Shown one piece after another: positions 2,615 to 11,627 of a stretch of DNA of 11,627 nucleotides. This DNA comes from a virus (Duplodnaviria > Heunggongvirae > Uroviricota > Caudoviricetes), in IMG/VR virus record IMGVR_UViG_2531839179_000018, positions 1 to 11,627 of that record. One strand, given 5' to 3'. The notes beneath the pieces are model-generated. The model worked only from the letters and a program-made list of their open reading frames with translations, was not told the origin of the DNA and made no database searches. Each line of letters starts with the position of its first letter. The first letter of the stretch is position 1. Made by a program: the position numbers and the translations under genes.

Positions 2615-3817
2615 TTAAATACTCGCTACGTTATACCAGGTGCCATTAATCAGTTTTTGCAGTGGTCGGTAATACACACCGTCAACGTTATCCGCTGAGT
2701 TACGGCCGGTATCCGATATCGCCATCCCTGACAGCCCGTGTCCCGAAGGTGCGCAAAATCTCCACGAAACGGTGTTACTGCCGGGGCTGTAATACATTTC
2801 ATGGCCATACCGTACATCCTGTACCCCCTCTGTTCGATATTTATAGCGGGCATCGAAGTTTCCGTAATTTAACGGAATTACCTGTCCGTTAACAGTGAAC
2901 ACTATGCTGTTATCCGGGTTTCTCTGGCTGAAAAAATGCCAGCCTGAATCATCACCAAGCTCTGCAACAACAGGCCTGGATGGATTACCCCACAAACAAA
3001 ACGCTGCATTTTTCGTGGAGTTGTTGGCGCTGGATAACGTGAATTTTCTGGCAGTTCCGGCCTGAATATTCTTAAAAGCAATAGCCACGCCATTCTGAAA
3101 ACGAAATACATGCTGTCCATTCGCATAAACATCCAGCAGACCATCGCCATTTTGTTTAAACCCGGTATCGTTATCTCCTAAAACGATTGAACTTCCACCT
3201 AACGCATTCGTCGTACCAATGCCAAGGCAACCATTAATGACGGCATTAACCAGAATATTTAGTGTATCCCATTTGAGATTCATCAGGTCTTTAACCCGGC
3301 CGCCAGCGAGGCGGTGTCTCCATTTGAAATATTCATTACCGTTATCCGCCGTTTCAAACCACATGTAGGAATCGGTGTCTGCATCCGAATCATTTTTAAA
3401 TCCAATCTTCGCCCAGTCAGTATTCCGAATCCAGGCGAGGATTGAGTCGTTTTCAAAAGTAAGTCCACCGGACAAGGTATCGCCTTCCTGATGAACATAG
3501 CGTTGATCTGACTGCTCTTTACTGTAAACCTGAAGATTATCCCGTGCCGTCCCTTTATTCTGAAGGTCTGACAGATTGTTCTTCTGCCGCAGGAATATCC
3601 TTTTCGGATCCTCAAGAAGATTTACCCAGCCCGCACTGTCGGAGCCTTCAGGATCGGTCAGGTTATCGTCTGTGGTATTCAGCCAGACCGCTGTTGTTGC
3701 GACTCCGGCGAGAATGGCTCCTTTTGCATATCCACCAATGGCCCCCGCAAAACCGGCATTATACGTGTACAAACCGCCAGCCTGGGCGAACCGTATTGCT
3801 GCGGTAATATCGTACAT
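2615..3817 (-). CDS. Tail fibre protein, major C-terminal portion (P2 gpH / Mu S-like); 3' segment of a gene interrupted at a G10 tract
   Basis: 400-aa ORF containing the conserved fibre C-terminal block ([32 protein letters not shown]...[10 protein letters not shown]). Its frame stays open upstream of the ATG through the homopolymer to a stop at 3872-3874. Confidence 0.8.
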
Positions 3818-3824
3818 CAGACCG

Positions 3825-4016
3825 TTAAAATCCTTGCCGTGTGGCGGTCCCCCCCCCCGCTGAGACCGCTGTCATGGTCGTCGGAGGAAAACCTGAATCA
3901 TACGCAGCATTACCGCTCTCTCTGGTCTGCTGTGTCGCCTTGTCCGGGATACGGTTTTTATCTCCGGTACTCGCAAAGGGGACCGCCAGCTGGCGGGGTT
4001 TATCACTGGCCTTCAT
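3825..4016 (-). CDS. Tail fibre protein, N-terminal segment (5' part of the interrupted fibre gene)
   Basis: 63-aa ORF with a strong Shine-Dalgarno (AAGGAG, 7-nt spacing) before its ATG. It reads through the G10 tract as Gly-Gly-Gly and terminates 8 codons later, in a different frame from the 400-aa ORF. Confidence 0.6.
3849..3858. repeat. Homopolymeric tract, C10 on the plus strand (G10 in the coding sense) inside the tail fibre gene
   Basis: Counted directly from sequence. It lies exactly at the frame change between ORF 3825-4016 and ORF 2615-3817. Confidence 0.95.
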
Positions 4017-4608
4017 TACGGGACTCCTTTAAAACTACTGAAACATAAACACCCGGCGGGGACGGCAGTGCACCCGACGACTGGATAATCGCCAGTTCTG
4101 CCGACGAGAGCGCGGACTCAAAGACGTAACTCATCCTCAGCCCGCCATTATTCAGAACATAAGCCCGGCGTTTTTTTCCGAACATAAACCTCAGCATCCG
4201 GTTAATATCCGGAACGGAACAGTCAGTAATATTCGACATGGCTTTCATCAGGATCAGTCGCCGGTATATGGCATCAGTCAGGTCAACAGTCCGGGTAACC
4301 GATTTTCCGTTGTAAAACGGTGCCTGATTAAACGGGCGGGAATCATCCATTACCGGGGTGTCCATCCTGGACTCGCTGAAGCCCAGGTAATTAAAATCGT
4401 CCTTTACCGTCAGCCGGCGACTGACACCCACAATCTTTCCCCAGACATCAAGACCATACTTTTCTGCGGTATCGATGTTCCAGATAAGACCATAAAAATC
4501 ACTGATAAAACTGTCGGGGGAAAGCGCTGCGTTAAAGCTGTTAATGAGGGCATTGAGTCGGGAGCTGGCAGCATACTGCGCAAGCACAGTGGCAGCCACA
4601 TTCTGCAC
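4003..4608 (-). CDS. Baseplate/tail protein in the gpI / Mu gp48 position
   Basis: 201-aa ORF between the J-like gene and the fibre gene. The call rests on synteny with P2 (V-W-J-I-H-G) and Mu (gp45-gp48, S, U); I cannot confirm the sequence family by eye. Confidence 0.45.
4024..4028 (-). promoter_or_regulatory. Shine-Dalgarno sequence for the tail fibre gene start at 4016
   Basis: The minus-strand mRNA reads AAAGGAGUCCCGUA-AUG, giving an AGGAG core 7 nt upstream of the ATG. Confidence 0.6.
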
Positions 4609-4609
4609 G

Positions 4610-5392
4610 TTATGCCTCCTGGAGTTTCACACTGATATCCGACACATCCAGAACCGGAATCTCATCTATCCCGAAAGTGACAGCCGTTGTCCATGACGAA
4701 CCGTCACGGCTCACAGTAAGGCCCAGAATATCAATATGTTCCGGATCGGTTTTGTAAATGCCGGCATAGTAGCGCCCGGCAGAGACAACAGAGGCAACTC
4801 TTGCCCGCAGACCACCATCTGTACCATTAAATGCGTCCAGCACGGATTGCTGTACCTGTCGGGTAATATCTGAAGGCAGGTAGTCACTTTTTTTCAGCGT
4901 CACACTGACATGCAGACTGACGGGTTTGAGTGTCTGCCAGCTGATCACGTATTCAGGATACGGCGGATCGTACTCCTTATCTGCAACAGTGAACGTTGTG
5001 TTGCCATTCATATCAATACCCGGCGGAGCCTTACGCCAGATGGCCGCCGCGATATCTGCCGGGCTGCCGCCGTACACGCCAACATAAAGCGAACCGGGTG
5101 TTAATGGATACTGACTGACTCCGGCTTTTTGTTCTGTTTTTTTCGGATTATGGGTGACGTAAACATCCACCACGTTTTCTACCGTGGAGAGTATTTCACC
5201 CCGGATGGCTTCCAGAATATTCCGGGCATTACGGGCAACTGAATTACGTCGGCGGTTTTCAAAGTCCGCACGGGTTTCCTCATCGCTGCCCGGCACACCG
5301 GCACGGGCGTTAGTGACACCTGACCAGCCAGGTATTGCCTTATAAATTTTATTCAGCGTCCCCACAGGACAGCCGACGGGGCCGGTGGACAA
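4610..5392 (-). CDS. Baseplate J-like protein, C-terminal portion (3' segment of an apparently frameshifted gene)
   Basis: 260-aa ORF that begins at TTG with no Shine-Dalgarno. Its frame is open a further ~20 codons upstream and overlaps the end of ORF 5395-5847; the two ORFs together (~410 aa) match baseplate-J size and position. Confidence 0.6.
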   Translation of the reverse strand: MSTGPVGCPVGTLNKIYKAIPGWSGVTNARAGVPGSDEETRADFENRRRNSVARNARNILEAIRGEILSTVENVVDVYVTHNPKKTEQKAGVSQYPLTPGSLYVGVYGGSPADIAAAIWRKAPPGIDMNGNTTFTVADKEYDPPYPEYVISWQTLKPVSLHVSVTLKKSDYLPSDITRQVQQSVLDAFNGTDGGLRARVASVVSAGRYYAGIYKTDPEHIDILGLTVSRDGSSWTTAVTFGIDEIPVLDVSDISVKLQEA

Positions 5393-5394
5393 AT

Positions 5395-5847
5395 TCAGAA
5401 ATACCGCATCAACCTGCCCTGATGCGCCGATAGTGACGTCTGACTGACATACTTATAACCGGCCTCATCCTGCGCCATACTGCTCGCCGGGATCAGCGTG
5501 CCAACCAGCCCGGTACAGGTCGCTGTTACTGTCGTACCTGTGGCCCCACGGCGCTCCAGGAAATAAATCCTGCCTATTGCATCCTGAAAGCGACCACTGA
5601 AAAAGTCAGGGTTGATCTGGTTAACGATATACAGCAACTGATCGTTTTTATCCGCAATAATGGCGCTTTCGCTGGATGCAAGTTGTCCCTGCGGACTGCT
5701 CAGACTGGTACTCATGGCCCCGCCCAGCGCCGCCGAAAAATCAGCAAGCCTGCCGCTCAGAATATCCGCTTCATCCGGCACATTCAGCCCGCTATCCGAA
5801 ATCTGTACAGCGGGCACTGCGGTAGAAAAAGATTTATTTTCACTCAT
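5395..5847 (-). CDS. Baseplate J-like protein, N-terminal portion (5' segment of an apparently frameshifted gene)
   Basis: 150-aa ORF whose start overlaps the upstream gene by 4 nt. It stops at TGA (5395-5397), 2 nt before the downstream ORF's first codon, which is in another frame. Confidence 0.6.
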   Translation of the reverse strand: MSENKSFSTAVPAVQISDSGLNVPDEADILSGRLADFSAALGGAMSTSLSSPQGQLASSESAIIADKNDQLLYIVNQINPDFFSGRFQDAIGRIYFLERRGATGTTVTATCTGLVGTLIPASSMAQDEAGYKYVSQTSLSAHQGRLMRYF

Positions 5848-6200
5848 AGCAGTACCGTAAAAATGTCATTATTGGTATCTGTAATACGCAGCACACCTGT
5901 TACTGTCCGGGTTTGATCAGTTGTGACCTGGCAGACAGCGGCGCTCACGGTCGGCAGTTTAAGTGCTTCCTGTTGCAGAGTGGCATTCACCAGTTGTGTG
6001 CCGGGCCAGTGTCCGAGGATGCGTGGCCAGTAAGGTATGCCAGCCGTTGAGTCGTACCAGCACTCCCCCAGAAAAGTACTGCACGCACACGCCACATCCT
6101 GAGCTACCGCATGGGGATTATCAGTAATGGCAAGATTTCCGGTATCATCAAGCAGGATATCCCATGTCCCGGTGTCAAGAAGAAGTGATCGTGACTGCAT
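5844..6200 (-). CDS. Small baseplate protein in the Mu gp46 / P2 gpW position
   Basis: 118-aa ORF between the spike and J-like genes. The call is by synteny and size only. Confidence 0.45.
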   Translation of the reverse strand: MQSRSLLLDTGTWDILLDDTGNLAITDNPHAVAQDVACACSTFLGECWYDSTAGIPYWPRILGHWPGTQLVNATLQQEALKLPTVSAAVCQVTTDQTRTVTGVLRITDTNNDIFTVLL

Positions 6201-6212
6201 GTTTTCTCCTGT

Positions 6213-6890
6213 TTACCGGGGTCCCTGCGTGGTTGAGCCGCCGGACTCAACGCCGCCGTGAACGTGGTTTCCAAAATCAATACCCCCGATGTTCGAACCG
6301 CCGGAAAGCCTGGACTGCCCGGTAACGTTAAGCCCCTTACTGACGGCGGTATCGCCGTTCAGCGCAATTTGTGGTGAGTTAACGGTGAAGCTTTTCGGCG
6401 CATTAATCACACCCTCAGGCGCGGATATCTCCACTTTCCAGGGAGATACAATCCGTATCTGGTTGTCATCAAATACCACAAACTGGACGGGATCACCGTT
6501 GAGCACGCCACCCAGCCAGATGGCATCAGCATAATTATGGGTACGCTTTGATCCCGGCATCGCAGCCTGACGCGTGGCTTTTACCGCACTGATATCCCGA
6601 TCGCAGATGGCAAGAAAACCGATATCCCCCACATGTGGCGGCATAATCACCGCATTACCGCCCCCCTGTAGTCGCCATACGGGAATGTTATAAATCACCT
6701 CATGTTCAACCGGGGAACCGTCTGCTGCAACGCCCATTACCATCGGTCGGGCCTCAATAAATCCCTCTTCCACGGCTACCACCCGTCCCAGAGTGATAAA
6801 CGCATGACGTCCGAGAAACTGCCGCAGCATAAAGTCCTGTGCATTGATTTCGCTGTTCACGTCTGTCGGGTTACTGAGTGGTTGTGCCAT
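6213..6890 (-). CDS. Baseplate central spike protein (P2 gpV / Mu gp45-like)
   Basis: 225-aa ORF of the right size and position for a spike protein, with a Gly-rich C-terminus carrying an HxH motif (GIDFGNHVHGGVESGG), as seen in spike apex domains. A Met at residue 21 is an alternative start lying after the upstream stop. Confidence 0.65.
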   Translation of the reverse strand: MAQPLSNPTDVNSEINAQDFMLRQFLGRHAFITLGRVVAVEEGFIEARPMVMGVAADGSPVEHEVIYNIPVWRLQGGGNAVIMPPHVGDIGFLAICDRDISAVKATRQAAMPGSKRTHNYADAIWLGGVLNGDPVQFVVFDDNQIRIVSPWKVEISAPEGVINAPKSFTVNSPQIALNGDTAVSKGLNVTGQSRLSGGSNIGGIDFGNHVHGGVESGGSTTQGPR

Positions 6891-7740
6891 TTTCTTCAGC
6901 CCTCATCATGGTACAGTTGGAACTCCACGGACCGCCCACGGTTCGCGAAGTAATGGTGTGTATCACCCCTGTGATCGTATAATCGCCCGTCATATCAGGC
7001 AGTGACGATTCCAGATGCGCTGGCCTGCCAGTAAAGAGATCGGGGCAGAATATCGTGGTGGCGCTGAGTCCGGTCATGGTGTAAACCGGATAGCCAGTCA
7101 GTCCGTGATCCGGCGAAATCAGTACCGGCGGAATATTCCGGTTCTGCCCTTTCGGCCAGATGGTGACTTTCTCCACATTCCCCAGATCAATGTTAATATC
7201 GGCGGCTGAAGCGACATCCAGCATTTGTTGTACAACATTACCGGAAAAATGCGGGTCAGACAGACTGCGGCTGACCCCCTGGTTTTCAAATCCAAGCCCG
7301 ACAGTTGACGCCAGCGCACGGATAATATCTGCAACCGCAACATCGCCCTTTGCGCTGAAATCTGCCGCCGGCTGATTACGCAGATTAAAATGAATCTGTC
7401 CTGTCAGAATGAGCGGAATATCCGGCGCCTGGTTGTAGTCGGCGTATGCATCAGTAATATCACCTTCAAAAATAAGCCGCCCGTCGGCCCACAGCCGCAT
7501 TTTATTTGCGGTACTCTGCTCCTGTCGCCACACACCGCGCCAGCTTAAATTCGTCATATGCGCCGGTGACATTCCCCAGATATACAGCGTGATTTGTGTA
7601 CCAGCCACCCCTCCATATACGGCAATACTGGCAAAACAGCTTGCGTCGGTAATGGTCAGCATATTGCCCTGGCCATTACCAAACGTTCGTCCGTCTGAAA
7701 GAGTGAACTCCACCGTTATTTTACGTTGTCTGTAGCTCAT
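6871..7740 (-). CDS. Tail/baseplate protein, possibly hub-like (Mu gp44 position)
   Basis: 289-aa ORF immediately upstream of the spike gene, with a start that overlaps the stop of the upstream fragment. Function is inferred from position only. Confidence 0.4.
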
Positions 7741-7959
7741 ATCAGTTCCTCAGGTAACAGCCAGTAGAGCCGGTACCGGGATCCGAGCCCCCGCCAGTCA
7801 GGGTCACTATTCCCCTCCGTGTCGGTAAAAAACAGGTCCCCCTGAAACGGCAGGTATCCGTACCGGACAATCCGGTTATTATTCAGACACAGCACGCCAT
7901 ACAGGCACGGTTCACCATTAACAATGATATCGATATACATCCCCGTAGTACGCTGATTC
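7737..7959 (-). pseudogene. 3' remnant (~74 codons) of a phage tail gene truncated by the IS66-family insertion
   Basis: The reading frame is open from the IS66 end at 7960 down to the stop at 7737-7739, and is translationally coupled to the next gene. The 5' part of the gene is replaced by IS sequence. Confidence 0.45.
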
Positions 7960-8897
7960 GTAAGCGCCCCGAGAAGTACGTAGCGTAAGGATTATTTTAC
8001 AGACGAGAAGTTCCAGGGAAGCAGTTCATGCACTTGGTTCGACGGCCAGTCATTGAGCTTCTCGATCACTTCGCGCAACCAGTCCTCCGGCTCCACTTCG
8101 TTCTGTTTGCAGGTGACCAGCAGACTGTAGATGATCGCCGCACTTTCTCCTCCCTTGTCTGAACCGAAAAAGAGATAATTTTTTCTTCCAACCGCCACCG
8201 ATCGTAACGCGTTTTCACCGATGTTGTTGTCTATTTCCACCCAGCCGTCACGACAGAACTCGTTCAGCGCATTCCAGTGATTCAGGATATAGTCGAACGC
8301 CTTCGCCATCTCCGCATGTTTCGACAGCGTTTTCCTCTGCAACTGTATCCAGTCGTACAACGACTGCATCAACTGGACGCTTCTGGCTTTTCTGACTGCA
8401 AGCCGTTCCTCTGCCGGACTGCCACGTATCTCCGCTTCTATATCGTATAACTCTGCTATCCGTCTGAGCGCTTCCTGAGTCATTTCTGTCGGACGGCGCA
8501 CATCCTCGTCATGGATTTTTCGGCGGGCGTGGGCCAGGCACCCGGCTTCCTTCACCCGGCCCGCTTCGTACAGTACGTTATAACCTGCATAGGCATCAGC
8601 CTGCAGTACGCCCTGATACTTTGCCAGGTGGAGCTGCGGATGTTCTCCTTTGCGATCTGCCGAATACGCGAACCAGACGGCTGCCGGCAGGGATGAACCC
8701 GCATTACGATCATCCCTGACGTATACCCACAGACGACCCGTTTTCGTCTTTCCGTTCCCCGGGGCCAGTACTTTCACCGGAGTGTCATCTGCGTGCACCT
8801 TTCCTGCCTCCAGAACATAGTCATTCAGCGCTATATACAGAGGACGGAGTTTGTCTGCCATTTCTGATACCCAGCGCACCATGGTATTACGGCTCAG
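7960..8897 (-). mobile_element. IS66-family insertion sequence, truncated: terminal repeat end plus the 3' part of tnpC
   Basis: The end begins with GTAAGCG at 7960, typical of IS66-family terminal repeats, and carries the tnpC C-terminal ORF. The element is cut at 8897/8898 by the IS3-family end. Confidence 0.7.
7992..8882 (-). pseudogene. IS66-family transposase TnpC, C-terminal fragment (N-terminal ~220 aa missing)
   Basis: 296-aa ORF carrying the C-terminal catalytic region of IS66 TnpC-type transposases (DDTPVKVL...QADAYAGY...HARRK). Full-length TnpC is about 520 aa. Confidence 0.8.
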
Positions 8898-9224
8898 TGA
8901 GGTAGCCTGAGTTTAACGGACACTCCTTCCTGAAATAGAATGGCATCAGAAGGAGCTAATAATGAGCAGAAAAACCCAACGTTACTCTAAAGAGTTCAAA
9001 GCCGAAGCTGTCAGAACGGTTCTTGAAAATCAACTTTCGATCAGTGAAGGCGCTTCCCGATTATCCCTTCCTGAAGGCACTTTAGGACAATGGGTTACCG
9101 CCGCCAGAAAAGGGCTCGGTACTCCTGGTTCCCGCACGGTGGCTGAACTGGAATCTGAAATTCTGCAACTGCGTAAGGCGTTAAATGAAGCTCGCCTTGA
9201 GCGAGATATATTAAAAAAAGCAAC
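8898..9224 (+). mobile_element. IS3-family element (IS600-like), 5' end only: left terminal repeat plus orfA up to the frameshift window
   Basis: The left end TGAGGTAGCCTGAGTTTAACGG resembles the IS911 left end. OrfA begins at 8962 with a Shine-Dalgarno, and the element is cut at 9224 by IS30. Confidence 0.7.
8962..9224 (+). pseudogene. IS3-family OrfA (IS600-like), truncated after ...DILKKAT by IS30
   Basis: Translation MSRKTQRYSKEFKAEAVRTVLENQLSISEGASRLS... has an HTH and leucine-zipper-like OrfA architecture. The six-frame ORF (8962-9330) runs artificially into the IS30 terminal repeat. Confidence 0.75.
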
Positions 9225-10445
9225 TGTAGATTCAATTGGTCAACGCAACAGTTATGTGAAAACATGGGGTTGCGGAGGTTTTTTGAATGAGACGAACATT
9301 TACAGCAGAGGAAAAAGCCTCTGTTTTTGAACTATGGAAGAACGGAACAGGCTTCAGTGAAATAGCGAATATCCTGGGTTCAAAACCCGGAACGATCTTC
9401 ACTATGTTAAGGGATACTGGCGGCATAAAACCCCATGAGCGTAAGCGGGCTGTAGCTCACCTGACACTGTCTGAGCGCGAGGAGATACGAGCTGGTTTGT
9501 CAGCCAAAATGAGCATTCGTGCGATAGCTACTGCGCTGAATCGCAGTCCTTCGACGATCTCACGTGAAGTTCAGCGTAATCGGGGCAGACGCTATTACAA
9601 AGCTGTTGATGCTAATAACCGAGCCAACAGAATGGCGAAAAGGCCAAAACCGTGCTTACTGGATCAAAATTTACCATTGCGAAAGCTTGTTCTGGAAAAG
9701 CTGGAGATGAAATGGTCTCCAGAGCAAATATCAGGATGGTTAAGGCGAACAAAACCACGTCAAAAAACGCTGCGAATATCACCTGAGACAATTTATAAAA
9801 CGCTGTACTTTCGTAGCCGTGAAGCGCTACACCACCTGAATATACAGCATCTGCGACGGTCGCATAGCCTTCGCCATGGCAGGCGTCATACCCGCAAAGG
9901 CGAAAGAGGTACGATTAACATAGTGAACGGAACACCAATTCACGAACGTTCCCGAAATATCGATAACAGACGCTCTCTGGGGCATTGGGAGGGCGATTTA
10001 GTCTCAGGTACAAAAAACTCTCATATAGCCACACTTGTAGACCGAAAATCACGTTATACGATCATCCTTAGACTCAGGGGCAAAGATTCTGTCTCAGTAA
10101 ATCAGGCTCTTACCGACAAATTCCTGAGTTTACCGTCAGAACTCAGAAAATCACTGACATGGGACAGAGGAATGGAACTGGCCAGACATCTAGAATTTAC
10201 TGTCAGCACCGGCGTTAAAGTTTACTTCTGCGATCCTCAGAGTCCTTGGCAGCGGGGAACAAATGAGAACACAAATGGGCTAATTCGGCAGTACTTTCCT
10301 AAAAAGACATGTCTTGCCCAATATACTCAACATGAACTAGATCTGGTTGCTGCTCAGCTAAACAACAGACCGAGAAAGACACTGAAGTTCAAAACACCGA
10401 AAGAGATAATTGAAAGGGGTGTTGCATTGACAGATTGAATCTACA
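9225..10445 (+). mobile_element. IS30, complete (1221 bp) with 26-bp imperfect terminal inverted repeats
   Basis: Left repeat 9225-9250 (tgtagattcaattggtcaacgcaaca) and right repeat 10420-10445 (reverse complement tgtagattcaatctgtcaatgcaaca) match at 23 of 26 positions. Length and single-transposase organisation match IS30. Confidence 0.9.
9287..10438 (+). CDS. insI: IS30 transposase (383 aa), intact
   Basis: Full-length ORF with an N-terminal HTH region and a DDE-type catalytic core; its stop lies inside the right terminal repeat. Confidence 0.9.
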
Positions 10446-10708
10446 GTAGCCTTTTTTAATATTTCATTCTCCATTTCAATGCGTTGTAGCTTTTTCCTCA
10501 GCTTACGTATTTCGATTTGTTCTGGTGTTATCGGAGAGGCTTTTGGTGTTTTGCCCTGACGCTCATCACGCAGTTGTTTGACCCATCTTGTCATTGTGGA
10601 AAGGCCAACATCCATAGCTTTGGCGGCATCTGCCACCGTGTATTTCTGGTCAACAACCAGTTGAGCGGATTCGCGTTTAAACTCTGCGCTAAAATTTCTT
10701 TTTTTCAT
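10446..10708 (-). pseudogene. insN: IS911 OrfA, truncated after ...EILKKAT by IS30
   Basis: Translation [51 protein letters not shown]... is the IS911 OrfA N-terminus as I recall it. The six-frame ORF (10358-10744) is a chimera that adds upstream codons and reads into IS30. Confidence 0.8.
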
Positions 10709-10780
10709 TGGAGCACCTGTGTTGTTCTGAGGTGAGCATATCACCTCTGTTCAGGTGGCCAAATTCAGTGTGCCACTTCA
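10446..10780 (-). mobile_element. IS911 (IS3 family), 5' end only, inverted relative to the IS600-like fragment
   Basis: On the minus strand the element begins TGAAGTGGCACACTGAATTTGGCCACC at 10780 and OrfA starts at 10708. It is cut at 10446 by the IS30 right end. Confidence 0.8.
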
Positions 10781-11627
10781 TATCTTAAACTACCGGAATG
10801 AACTGCTGCATGGAGAAACGCTTTACCTAGATAATCCAAGATCCAACAAAAAAGGAAGAACCGTGCGCACAGTTGATAACTATATCGCCCTGCTCTGTTC
10901 GTTGTTACGTTTTGCGTATCAGTCGGGATTTATATCAACCAAACCATTTGAAGGAGTAAAAAAATTACAGCGAAACAGAATAAAGCCTGACCCGTTATCT
11001 AAAACAGAATTCAATGCATTAATGGAAAGTGAAAAAGGACAGAGCCAAAACTTGTGGAAATTTGCCGTTTACTCCGGGCTTCGTCACGGGGAACTGGCAG
11101 CTCTGGCGTGGGAGGATGTGGATTTCGAGAAGGGAATTGTGAATGTCAGAAGAAACCTGACGATACTTGATATGTTCGGTCCCCCAAAAACAAATGCCGG
11201 GATCCGGACGGTAACATTACTGCAGCCGGCTCTTGAAGCACTGAAGGAGCAATACAAACTGACCGGGCATCATCGCAAAAGCGAAATCACTTTTTATCAT
11301 CGGGAGTACGGCAGAACTGAAAAGCAAAAACTGCATTTTGTTTTCATGCCCAGGGTGTGTAACGAAAAACAGAAACCTTATTACTCGGTAAGCAGTTTGG
11401 GTGCAAGATGGAATGCAGCAGTAAAACGTGCTGGTATTCGCCGCCGTAATCCGTACCATACGCGACATACTTTTGCCTGCTGGCTGTTGACGGCAGGAGC
11501 GAACCCGGCATTTATAGCCAGCCAGATGGGGCATGAAACTGCGCAAATGGTGTATGAAATTTACGGTATGTGGATTGATGACATGAACGACGAACAGATA
11601 GCCATGTTGAATGCGCGGTTATCGTAG
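10781..11627 (+). pseudogene. Tyrosine recombinase (phage integrase), 5'-truncated; C-terminal catalytic domain present
   Basis: C-terminus carries catalytic-domain motifs (HTRHTFA...MGHETAQMVYEIY with the tyrosine nucleophile). The N-terminal domains are absent; sequence upstream of 10781 is the IS911 end, and the ORF's apparent start (GTG at 10755) lies inside it. Confidence 0.8.

Follow-up and report, generated by a model that had tools for sequence, protein, structure and literature searches.

The question raised by this locus is how two open reading frames, lying one behind the other on the minus strand and in different frames, are to be read: as two genes, as one gene that the ribosome follows across a change of frame, as one gene that has been broken, or as an error in a single sequence record. 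The window analysed here, that is the whole stretch of 11,627 nucleotides, matches a contig of a Shigella dysenteriae draft assembly (AFFZ01000026.1 in GCA_000211935.2) with 100% identity along all its 11627 nt, and the gene under study belongs to a cryptic myovirus-type prophage remnant beside the sitABCD island of this species.

In the mechanical list of open reading frames, an ATG-started ORF of 150 amino acids occupies positions 5395-5847 (-) and stops at a TGA (5395-5397), followed by a TTG-started ORF of 260 amino acids at 4610-5392 (-), in the -1 (+2) frame with respect to the first. Translation of the minus strand in three frames shows that exactly 20 codons are open upstream of the TTG at 5392 (VCQSDVTIGASGQVDAVFLN), up to a TAA, and that the downstream frame runs across the TTG as VCQSDVTIGASGQVDAVFLN-LSTGP... 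The first ORF ends in ...YVSQTSLSAHQGRLMRYF*; its codons 1-136 are those of the intact protein described below, while its final 14 (TSLSAHQGRLMRYF) are out of frame. The initiation signals of the two ORFs were also inspected. The ATG of the first overlaps the stop codon of the gene upstream (ATGA), an arrangement that suggests translational coupling between the two. No GGAG, GAGG or AGGA is found at a usable distance within the 25 nt (GCAGGTTGATGCGGTATTTCTGAAT) preceding the TTG, nor is a Shine-Dalgarno motif present ahead of the GTG at 5365; such motifs are present at the neighbouring genes, namely AGGAG for the gene at 6200 and AGGAGG for the gene at 4608. An earlier note on this DNA had described the two ORFs in these terms, with a second ORF in the -1 frame that begins with TTG, lacks a Shine-Dalgarno sequence and is open for about 20 codons upstream, and both the ORF list and the translation agree with it. 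The tandem repeat that it had reported in the mRNA sense at the frame change was likewise found, as GTCAGTCAG at 5440-5448 (-).

The family to which the locus belongs becomes visible only through an intact orthologue. Specifically, the intact protein (P0031) matches the Pfam family Baseplate_J (PF04865) with 45.9 bits, against a gathering cut-off of 21.1 bits, over residues 90-241, that is, across the position of the break at residue 136. The two halves in the window score 13.1 and 18.3 bits against the same model, both under the cut-off, the domain being cut in two by the break, and a search of each half with Pfam and NCBIfam gave no significant match. In addition, residues 16-344 of the intact protein align continuously with residues 7-342 of gp44, a baseplate protein of solved structure from Pseudomonas phage E217 (8env/8eon; 8env_J, E=2e-25), the motif SDVTI directly after the break being kept in this alignment, and further structural matches were obtained with 9b45 gp45-a and 7kh1 gp16. 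The claim of the earlier note that a baseplate J-like gene is split in two is thus borne out by a domain match that spans the break.

Conservation around the break points in the same direction. Among the 118 homologous clusters listed, 109 are single proteins of 404-417 amino acids with at least 97% of the query covered, from Salmonella, Serratia, Xenorhabdus, Photorhabdus, Klebsiella, Enterobacter, Pantoea and Dickeya; homologues occurring as two separate genes were looked for in these clusters and no lineage with such a layout was found, the short matches being partial or truncated. When 122 full-length homologues (395-420 amino acids) are aligned, the region of the break shows no gaps and has the consensus.IPAGS.A.D..GY.Y.S.....I...G.V...F.N...G.I.CP.G, and the break falls inside the conserved ungapped block SDVTI...G.V..F.N. 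The order of the neighbouring genes (hub, spike, sheath initiator, J, DUF2612/wedge-1, tail fibre and tail-fibre assembly protein) is that of a contractile-tail baseplate module. The intact orthologue matches the Baseplate J/gp47 family, whose members include E217 gp44, phage Mu gp47 and P2 gpJ, and the locus shares with the systems of this family the succession of gp25-like sheath initiator, J, wedge-1 (DUF2612) and tail fibre; unlike these members, the gene in the window carries a -4 frameshift that breaks it at residue 136. The window does not encode one unbroken polypeptide of about 400-420 amino acids, the reading being divided there between ORFs of 150 and 260 amino acids in different frames, and the locus is therefore a pseudogene of the J/gp47 family rather than a functional member of it. 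A megablast search against phage genomes returned only parts of the tail fibre, and no cultured phage with the J gene at the nucleotide level.

The nature of the lesion follows from the comparison with close relatives. When positions 4400-6300 were used as a megablast query against complete E. coli genomes, seven chromosomes of enteroinvasive E. coli (EIEC), all of the ipaH-carrying enteroinvasive type, were matched at 99.2-99.4% identity, and the stretch matched in each of them exceeds the query by 4 nt and contains a single gene, of 1242 nt and 413 amino acids, annotated as a "baseplate J/gp47 family protein". In the alignment, one GTCA at the repeat is the sole indel inside the J gene: intact orthologues have GTCAGTCAGTCAG where the window has GTCAGTCAG. 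The intact tract, TAT GTC AGT CAG TCA GAC (Y V S Q S D), is thus (GTCA)3G, and that of the window is (GTCA)2G, after which the remaining 3' portion of the J frame (4610..5439, -) is in frame with the intact protein as far as the stop. The lesion is a deletion of four nucleotides, one GTCA unit gone within the repeat, and not a one-nucleotide indel beside it. The earlier note had predicted that a single-nucleotide indel would restore one protein of about 410 amino acids; one +1 insertion would indeed also restore the frame, but the actual change is the loss of four nucleotides. The alignment to intact J proteins and related strains that it had proposed as a check places the frameshift at the GTCA repeat itself.

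The 9-mer GTCAGTCAG occurs twice in the window, against 0.08 occurrences expected. The second copy, at 5111-5119, also lies in the J gene and encodes VSQ in GVSQY; it is not a lesion, two units being present there in intact relatives as well. Tandem Repeats Finder does not report the tract at the break, which is too short for it.

The history of the tract can be followed one step further back with the Salmonella orthologue (413 amino acids; L034:1001-2242), which has the imperfect tract GTCAGTCTGTCAG, with Leu in place of Gln. Given the series formed by Salmonella (GTCAGTCTGTCAG), E. coli (GTCAGTCAGTCAG) and the window (GTCAGTCAG), three units in frame are the ancestral state and, since the Salmonella tract is imperfect, a T>A change (Leu>Gln) made the tract a perfect (GTCA)3 within the clade of E. 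coli and Shigella, with the contraction coming later. A perfect short tandem repeat that has become shorter by exactly one unit bears the textbook signature of slipped-strand mispairing. Replication slippage is, from this signature, the most likely route from (GTCA)3G to (GTCA)2G, and the case resembles the slippage indels of Streisinger and of Levinson and Gutman, one unit being lost here from a perfect three-unit tetranucleotide tract, with no unusual difference from them. Following the deletion, translation would proceed after residue 136 through 14 out-of-frame codons and terminate at the TGA at 5395-5397, and the 3' two-thirds of the gene, which have no ribosome-binding site, would very probably not be made.

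The two-unit allele is not confined to the window. It is carried by 24 further loci, comprising S. dysenteriae and S. boydii assemblies, assemblies of SRA runs and IMG/VR contigs. The exact 150-amino-acid product is found on 65 contigs, all named Shigella dysenteriae, and ten loci with this product (the source contig and nine others, which come from distinct NCBI drafts and from Logan assemblies of different runs) have two units in every case (10/10). Three more variants of 150 amino acids share the same out-of-frame tail, on 150 (P0003), 29 (P0006) and 5 contigs, the third of them, P0011, coming from S. boydii ATCC 9905. Two units are present at all variant loci, including the complete chromosomes CP026807, CP045784, CP026823, CP026824 and CP027027. 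The four product variants differ by the single changes S83F, G122S, A125G and A141V, the last in the shifted frame, and such single changes are consistent with pseudogene drift. Overall, the Shigella haplotype cluster has two units at every one of its 25 loci, window included, and all 13 loci of the intact type have three; among IMG/VR contigs the counts are 4 and 7, respectively. No four-unit allele was met in the pattern scan of viral contigs, and no one-unit allele in any aligned locus. An exact-pattern scan for the repeat region in genome contigs, which hold one genome per species and an E. coli representative without the prophage, gave no match. The frameshift is real and inherited, and the variety of the assemblies that carry the allele suggests that it does not depend on the sequencing platform.

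The module around the gene has decayed as well. Several of its genes are intact on the minus strand: the gp25-like sheath-initiator gene directly upstream of J (5844..6200; PF10934 Sheath_initiator, matched on the identical product of the source contig, L005), the DUF2612/baseplate wedge-1 gene directly downstream (4003..4608), the spike gene (6213-6890) and the baseplate hub gene (6871-7740). Homology to the intact prophage ends at position 7959, within the baseplate plug gene (7737..7959, -), whose 5' end is removed so that 74 of 100 codons remain and about 27 are missing. This truncation is bounded by the remnant of an IS66-family transposase (7992..8882, -; 296 of about 512 amino acids), which begins a pile of insertion sequences reaching to 10744: an IS3-family orfA (8962-9330), a complete IS30 transposase (9287-10438) and a second IS3-family orfA on the opposite strand (10358-10744). 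A fragment of a phage-type integrase (10755-11627) then runs off the end of the window. The EIEC relatives have genes for the Dit-like protein, tape measure, tube and sheath, all of which are absent here. On the other side of J, the tail-fibre gene (2615-4016, -) is split into ORFs of 63 (3825-4016) and 400 amino acids (2615-3817) by a frameshifting poly-G run (G10; 3849..3858, -) that reads G8T in the intact EIEC relative. Sister assemblies show lengths of 10, 11 or 13 for this run, none of them in frame, and the run may be either hypermutable or prone to assembly error. The earlier suggestion that the split gene marks a decaying module fits the plug gene cut by IS66, the missing upstream tail genes and the frameshifted tail fibre.

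Taken with these lesions, the two ORFs very probably are one J/gp47 gene, inactivated by the loss of a GTCA unit within a decayed cryptic prophage and inherited as a neutral pseudogene; we hold this reading with high confidence. What can be asked of it next is whether the unit was lost once or several times. Over a 1.6-kb segment covering gp25 and J, with 40 variable sites and few informative SNPs, one backbone haplotype is common to all two-unit alleles. This backbone includes a derived T that is absent from most intact alleles and from Salmonella; it is found in no three-unit allele, and private SNPs are the only differences among the two-unit alleles. The surroundings of the allele are of four kinds. 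In the window type, the locus is adjacent to sitD, the plug is cut by IS66 and an integrase follows; a second type (L037 and L038) has the same sit-adjacent pile of insertion sequences, beyond which sheath remnants follow, and its tail-fibre region contains an IS110-family element; a third (L015-L020) is flanked by IS66, with plug and tape measure intact and an IS3-family element in DUF2612; in the fourth, from S. boydii (L035), another integrase stands directly after J. Since the lesion is common to all and the insertion-sequence lesions differ, the simplest account is that one deletion is older than the insertion-sequence damage. A single old deletion is, on haplotype grounds, the most likely origin of the two-unit alleles; it would predate the lineage-specific insertion-sequence lesions and go back to an ancestor from which several lineages of S. 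dysenteriae and S. boydii descend.

Alternatively, the GTCA unit might have been lost repeatedly, as at a hot spot, in separate Shigella lineages or prophage copies, or have been spread by gene conversion between copies. The presence of the allele in four structural contexts and under two species names would agree with this, as would the slippage-prone nature of short tandem repeats and the mosaic patterns shown by this prophage family. The single shared backbone, differing by private SNPs only and found in no intact allele, argues against it. Recurrence or gene conversion is accordingly considered unlikely, and a small probability is kept for it because the informative sites are few.

Shortening of the gene by other means does occur. 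In E. coli ECMA0423 (L032) and S. flexneri SFBU1023 (L033), the only two loci returned by the related-locus search of genome contigs, only J residues 180-413 are present (positions 3001-3698), a truncation that is different from the GTCA loss and probably independent of it.

A less probable reading, to which we give very little credit, regards the GTCA tract as a phase-variable contingency switch that would turn the tail module reversibly on and off. Tetranucleotide repeats in coding regions are the classic phase-variation switches of Haemophilus and Neisseria. The locus resembles the contingency loci of Haemophilus influenzae and Neisseria in having a coding tetranucleotide repeat whose unit number sets the frame, and alleles with two and with three units are both found in nature. 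It differs from them in that there are only two or three units, far below the numbers of known switches, that these are fixed within lineages and that the surrounding module is not functional. Tract length does not vary among close isolates: none of the 25 loci of the cluster has reverted, and it is the haplotype that sets the state of the tract, not switching at the level of the strain. Moreover, an ON state would itself be non-functional, owing to the loss of the upstream genes and the frameshift in the tail fibre.

Rejoining of the two ORFs by the ribosome has even less in its favour, and we attach almost no probability to it. The first ORF ends in UAU UUC UGA (5395-5403), where, with the A site empty, tRNA-Phe could move by -1 on U-UUC-UGA (UUC to UUU); such a slip would place the ribosome exactly in the J frame and yield a near-full-length J. 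No X XXY YYZ heptamer exists in 5380-5460, however, and the 85 nt downstream (5310-5394) fold at -24.7 kcal/mol, no more stably than shuffled sequences do (z = -0.32). Homologues have one continuous ORF and the recoding site is not conserved; furthermore, the product would still have the wrong sequence over 14 residues, where conserved positions (I, G.V, F) are replaced. The slip site is probably coincidental, because TTTCTG is shared with the intact genes and is not followed by a stimulatory structure. That a low-frequency GTCA switch or an occasional -1 read-through at U-UUC-UGA still lets some cells make the J-like protein is, in our judgement, very improbable; if it were true, the protein would perhaps serve a domesticated tail-derived structure.

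The remaining two readings have scarcely any likelihood left. An arrangement as two functional genes, whose N- and C-terminal fragments would be made separately and then assemble, is suggested by the length of both ORFs and by annotation pipelines that call them as genes, but the second ORF has only a weak TTG or GTG start without Shine-Dalgarno, the break lies within a conserved domain and not at its boundary, no homologue lineage has this layout, and the 150-amino-acid fragments gather changes (F83, S122, G125, V141) as expected without constraint. An error of sequencing or assembly in one record, with the real gene intact, was the alternative left by the earlier note, and it draws on the origin of the window in a draft assembly and on the nearby homopolymer that varies among assemblies, but it is excluded by the identical two-unit allele at the 24 other loci, from complete chromosomes, drafts, Logan assemblies and IMG/VR, at a tetranucleotide repeat that is not a typical error site and that never differs between assemblies, whereas the poly-G run does.

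The broken J gene thus stands as a pseudogene in a genomic setting of a familiar kind. The left end of the window (positions 1-200) lies directly against sitD, in the sitABCD island for an iron/manganese transporter, and the same junction is seen in EIEC CFSAN029787 (loci compared: L003:4143-5000 and L005:13848-14705); the variable island on which sitABCD is located is known first from S. flexneri, where it was described (PMC7545054). In EIEC copies of this type of prophage, ipaH genes for type III secretion effectors are located just past the tail-fibre genes (L001:10588-12351, L002:12992-13905, L004:965-2791), and these EIEC strains carry the module in two or three copies, one of which has a frameshift in its tape-measure gene. 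Expansion of insertion sequences and massive pseudogenisation are well-known traits of Shigella genomes (PMC8072062). The window is alike in its phage tail genes adjacent to sitD, its pile of IS66, IS3 and IS30 elements and its frameshifts, as in pseudogenisation driven by insertion sequences and point mutation; the lesion in J, being a microsatellite contraction, is unlike the insertions typical of Shigella.

The frameshift in J is ordinary prophage decay and has little importance beyond annotation, where two "hypothetical proteins" in Shigella genomes become one frameshifted baseplate J pseudogene. Within these limits, the locus offers a clean and datable case of pseudogenisation by microsatellite contraction, in which a substitution perfected the repeat first and the loss of a unit followed, and the -4 allele could mark a lineage that groups S. 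dysenteriae with S. boydii.
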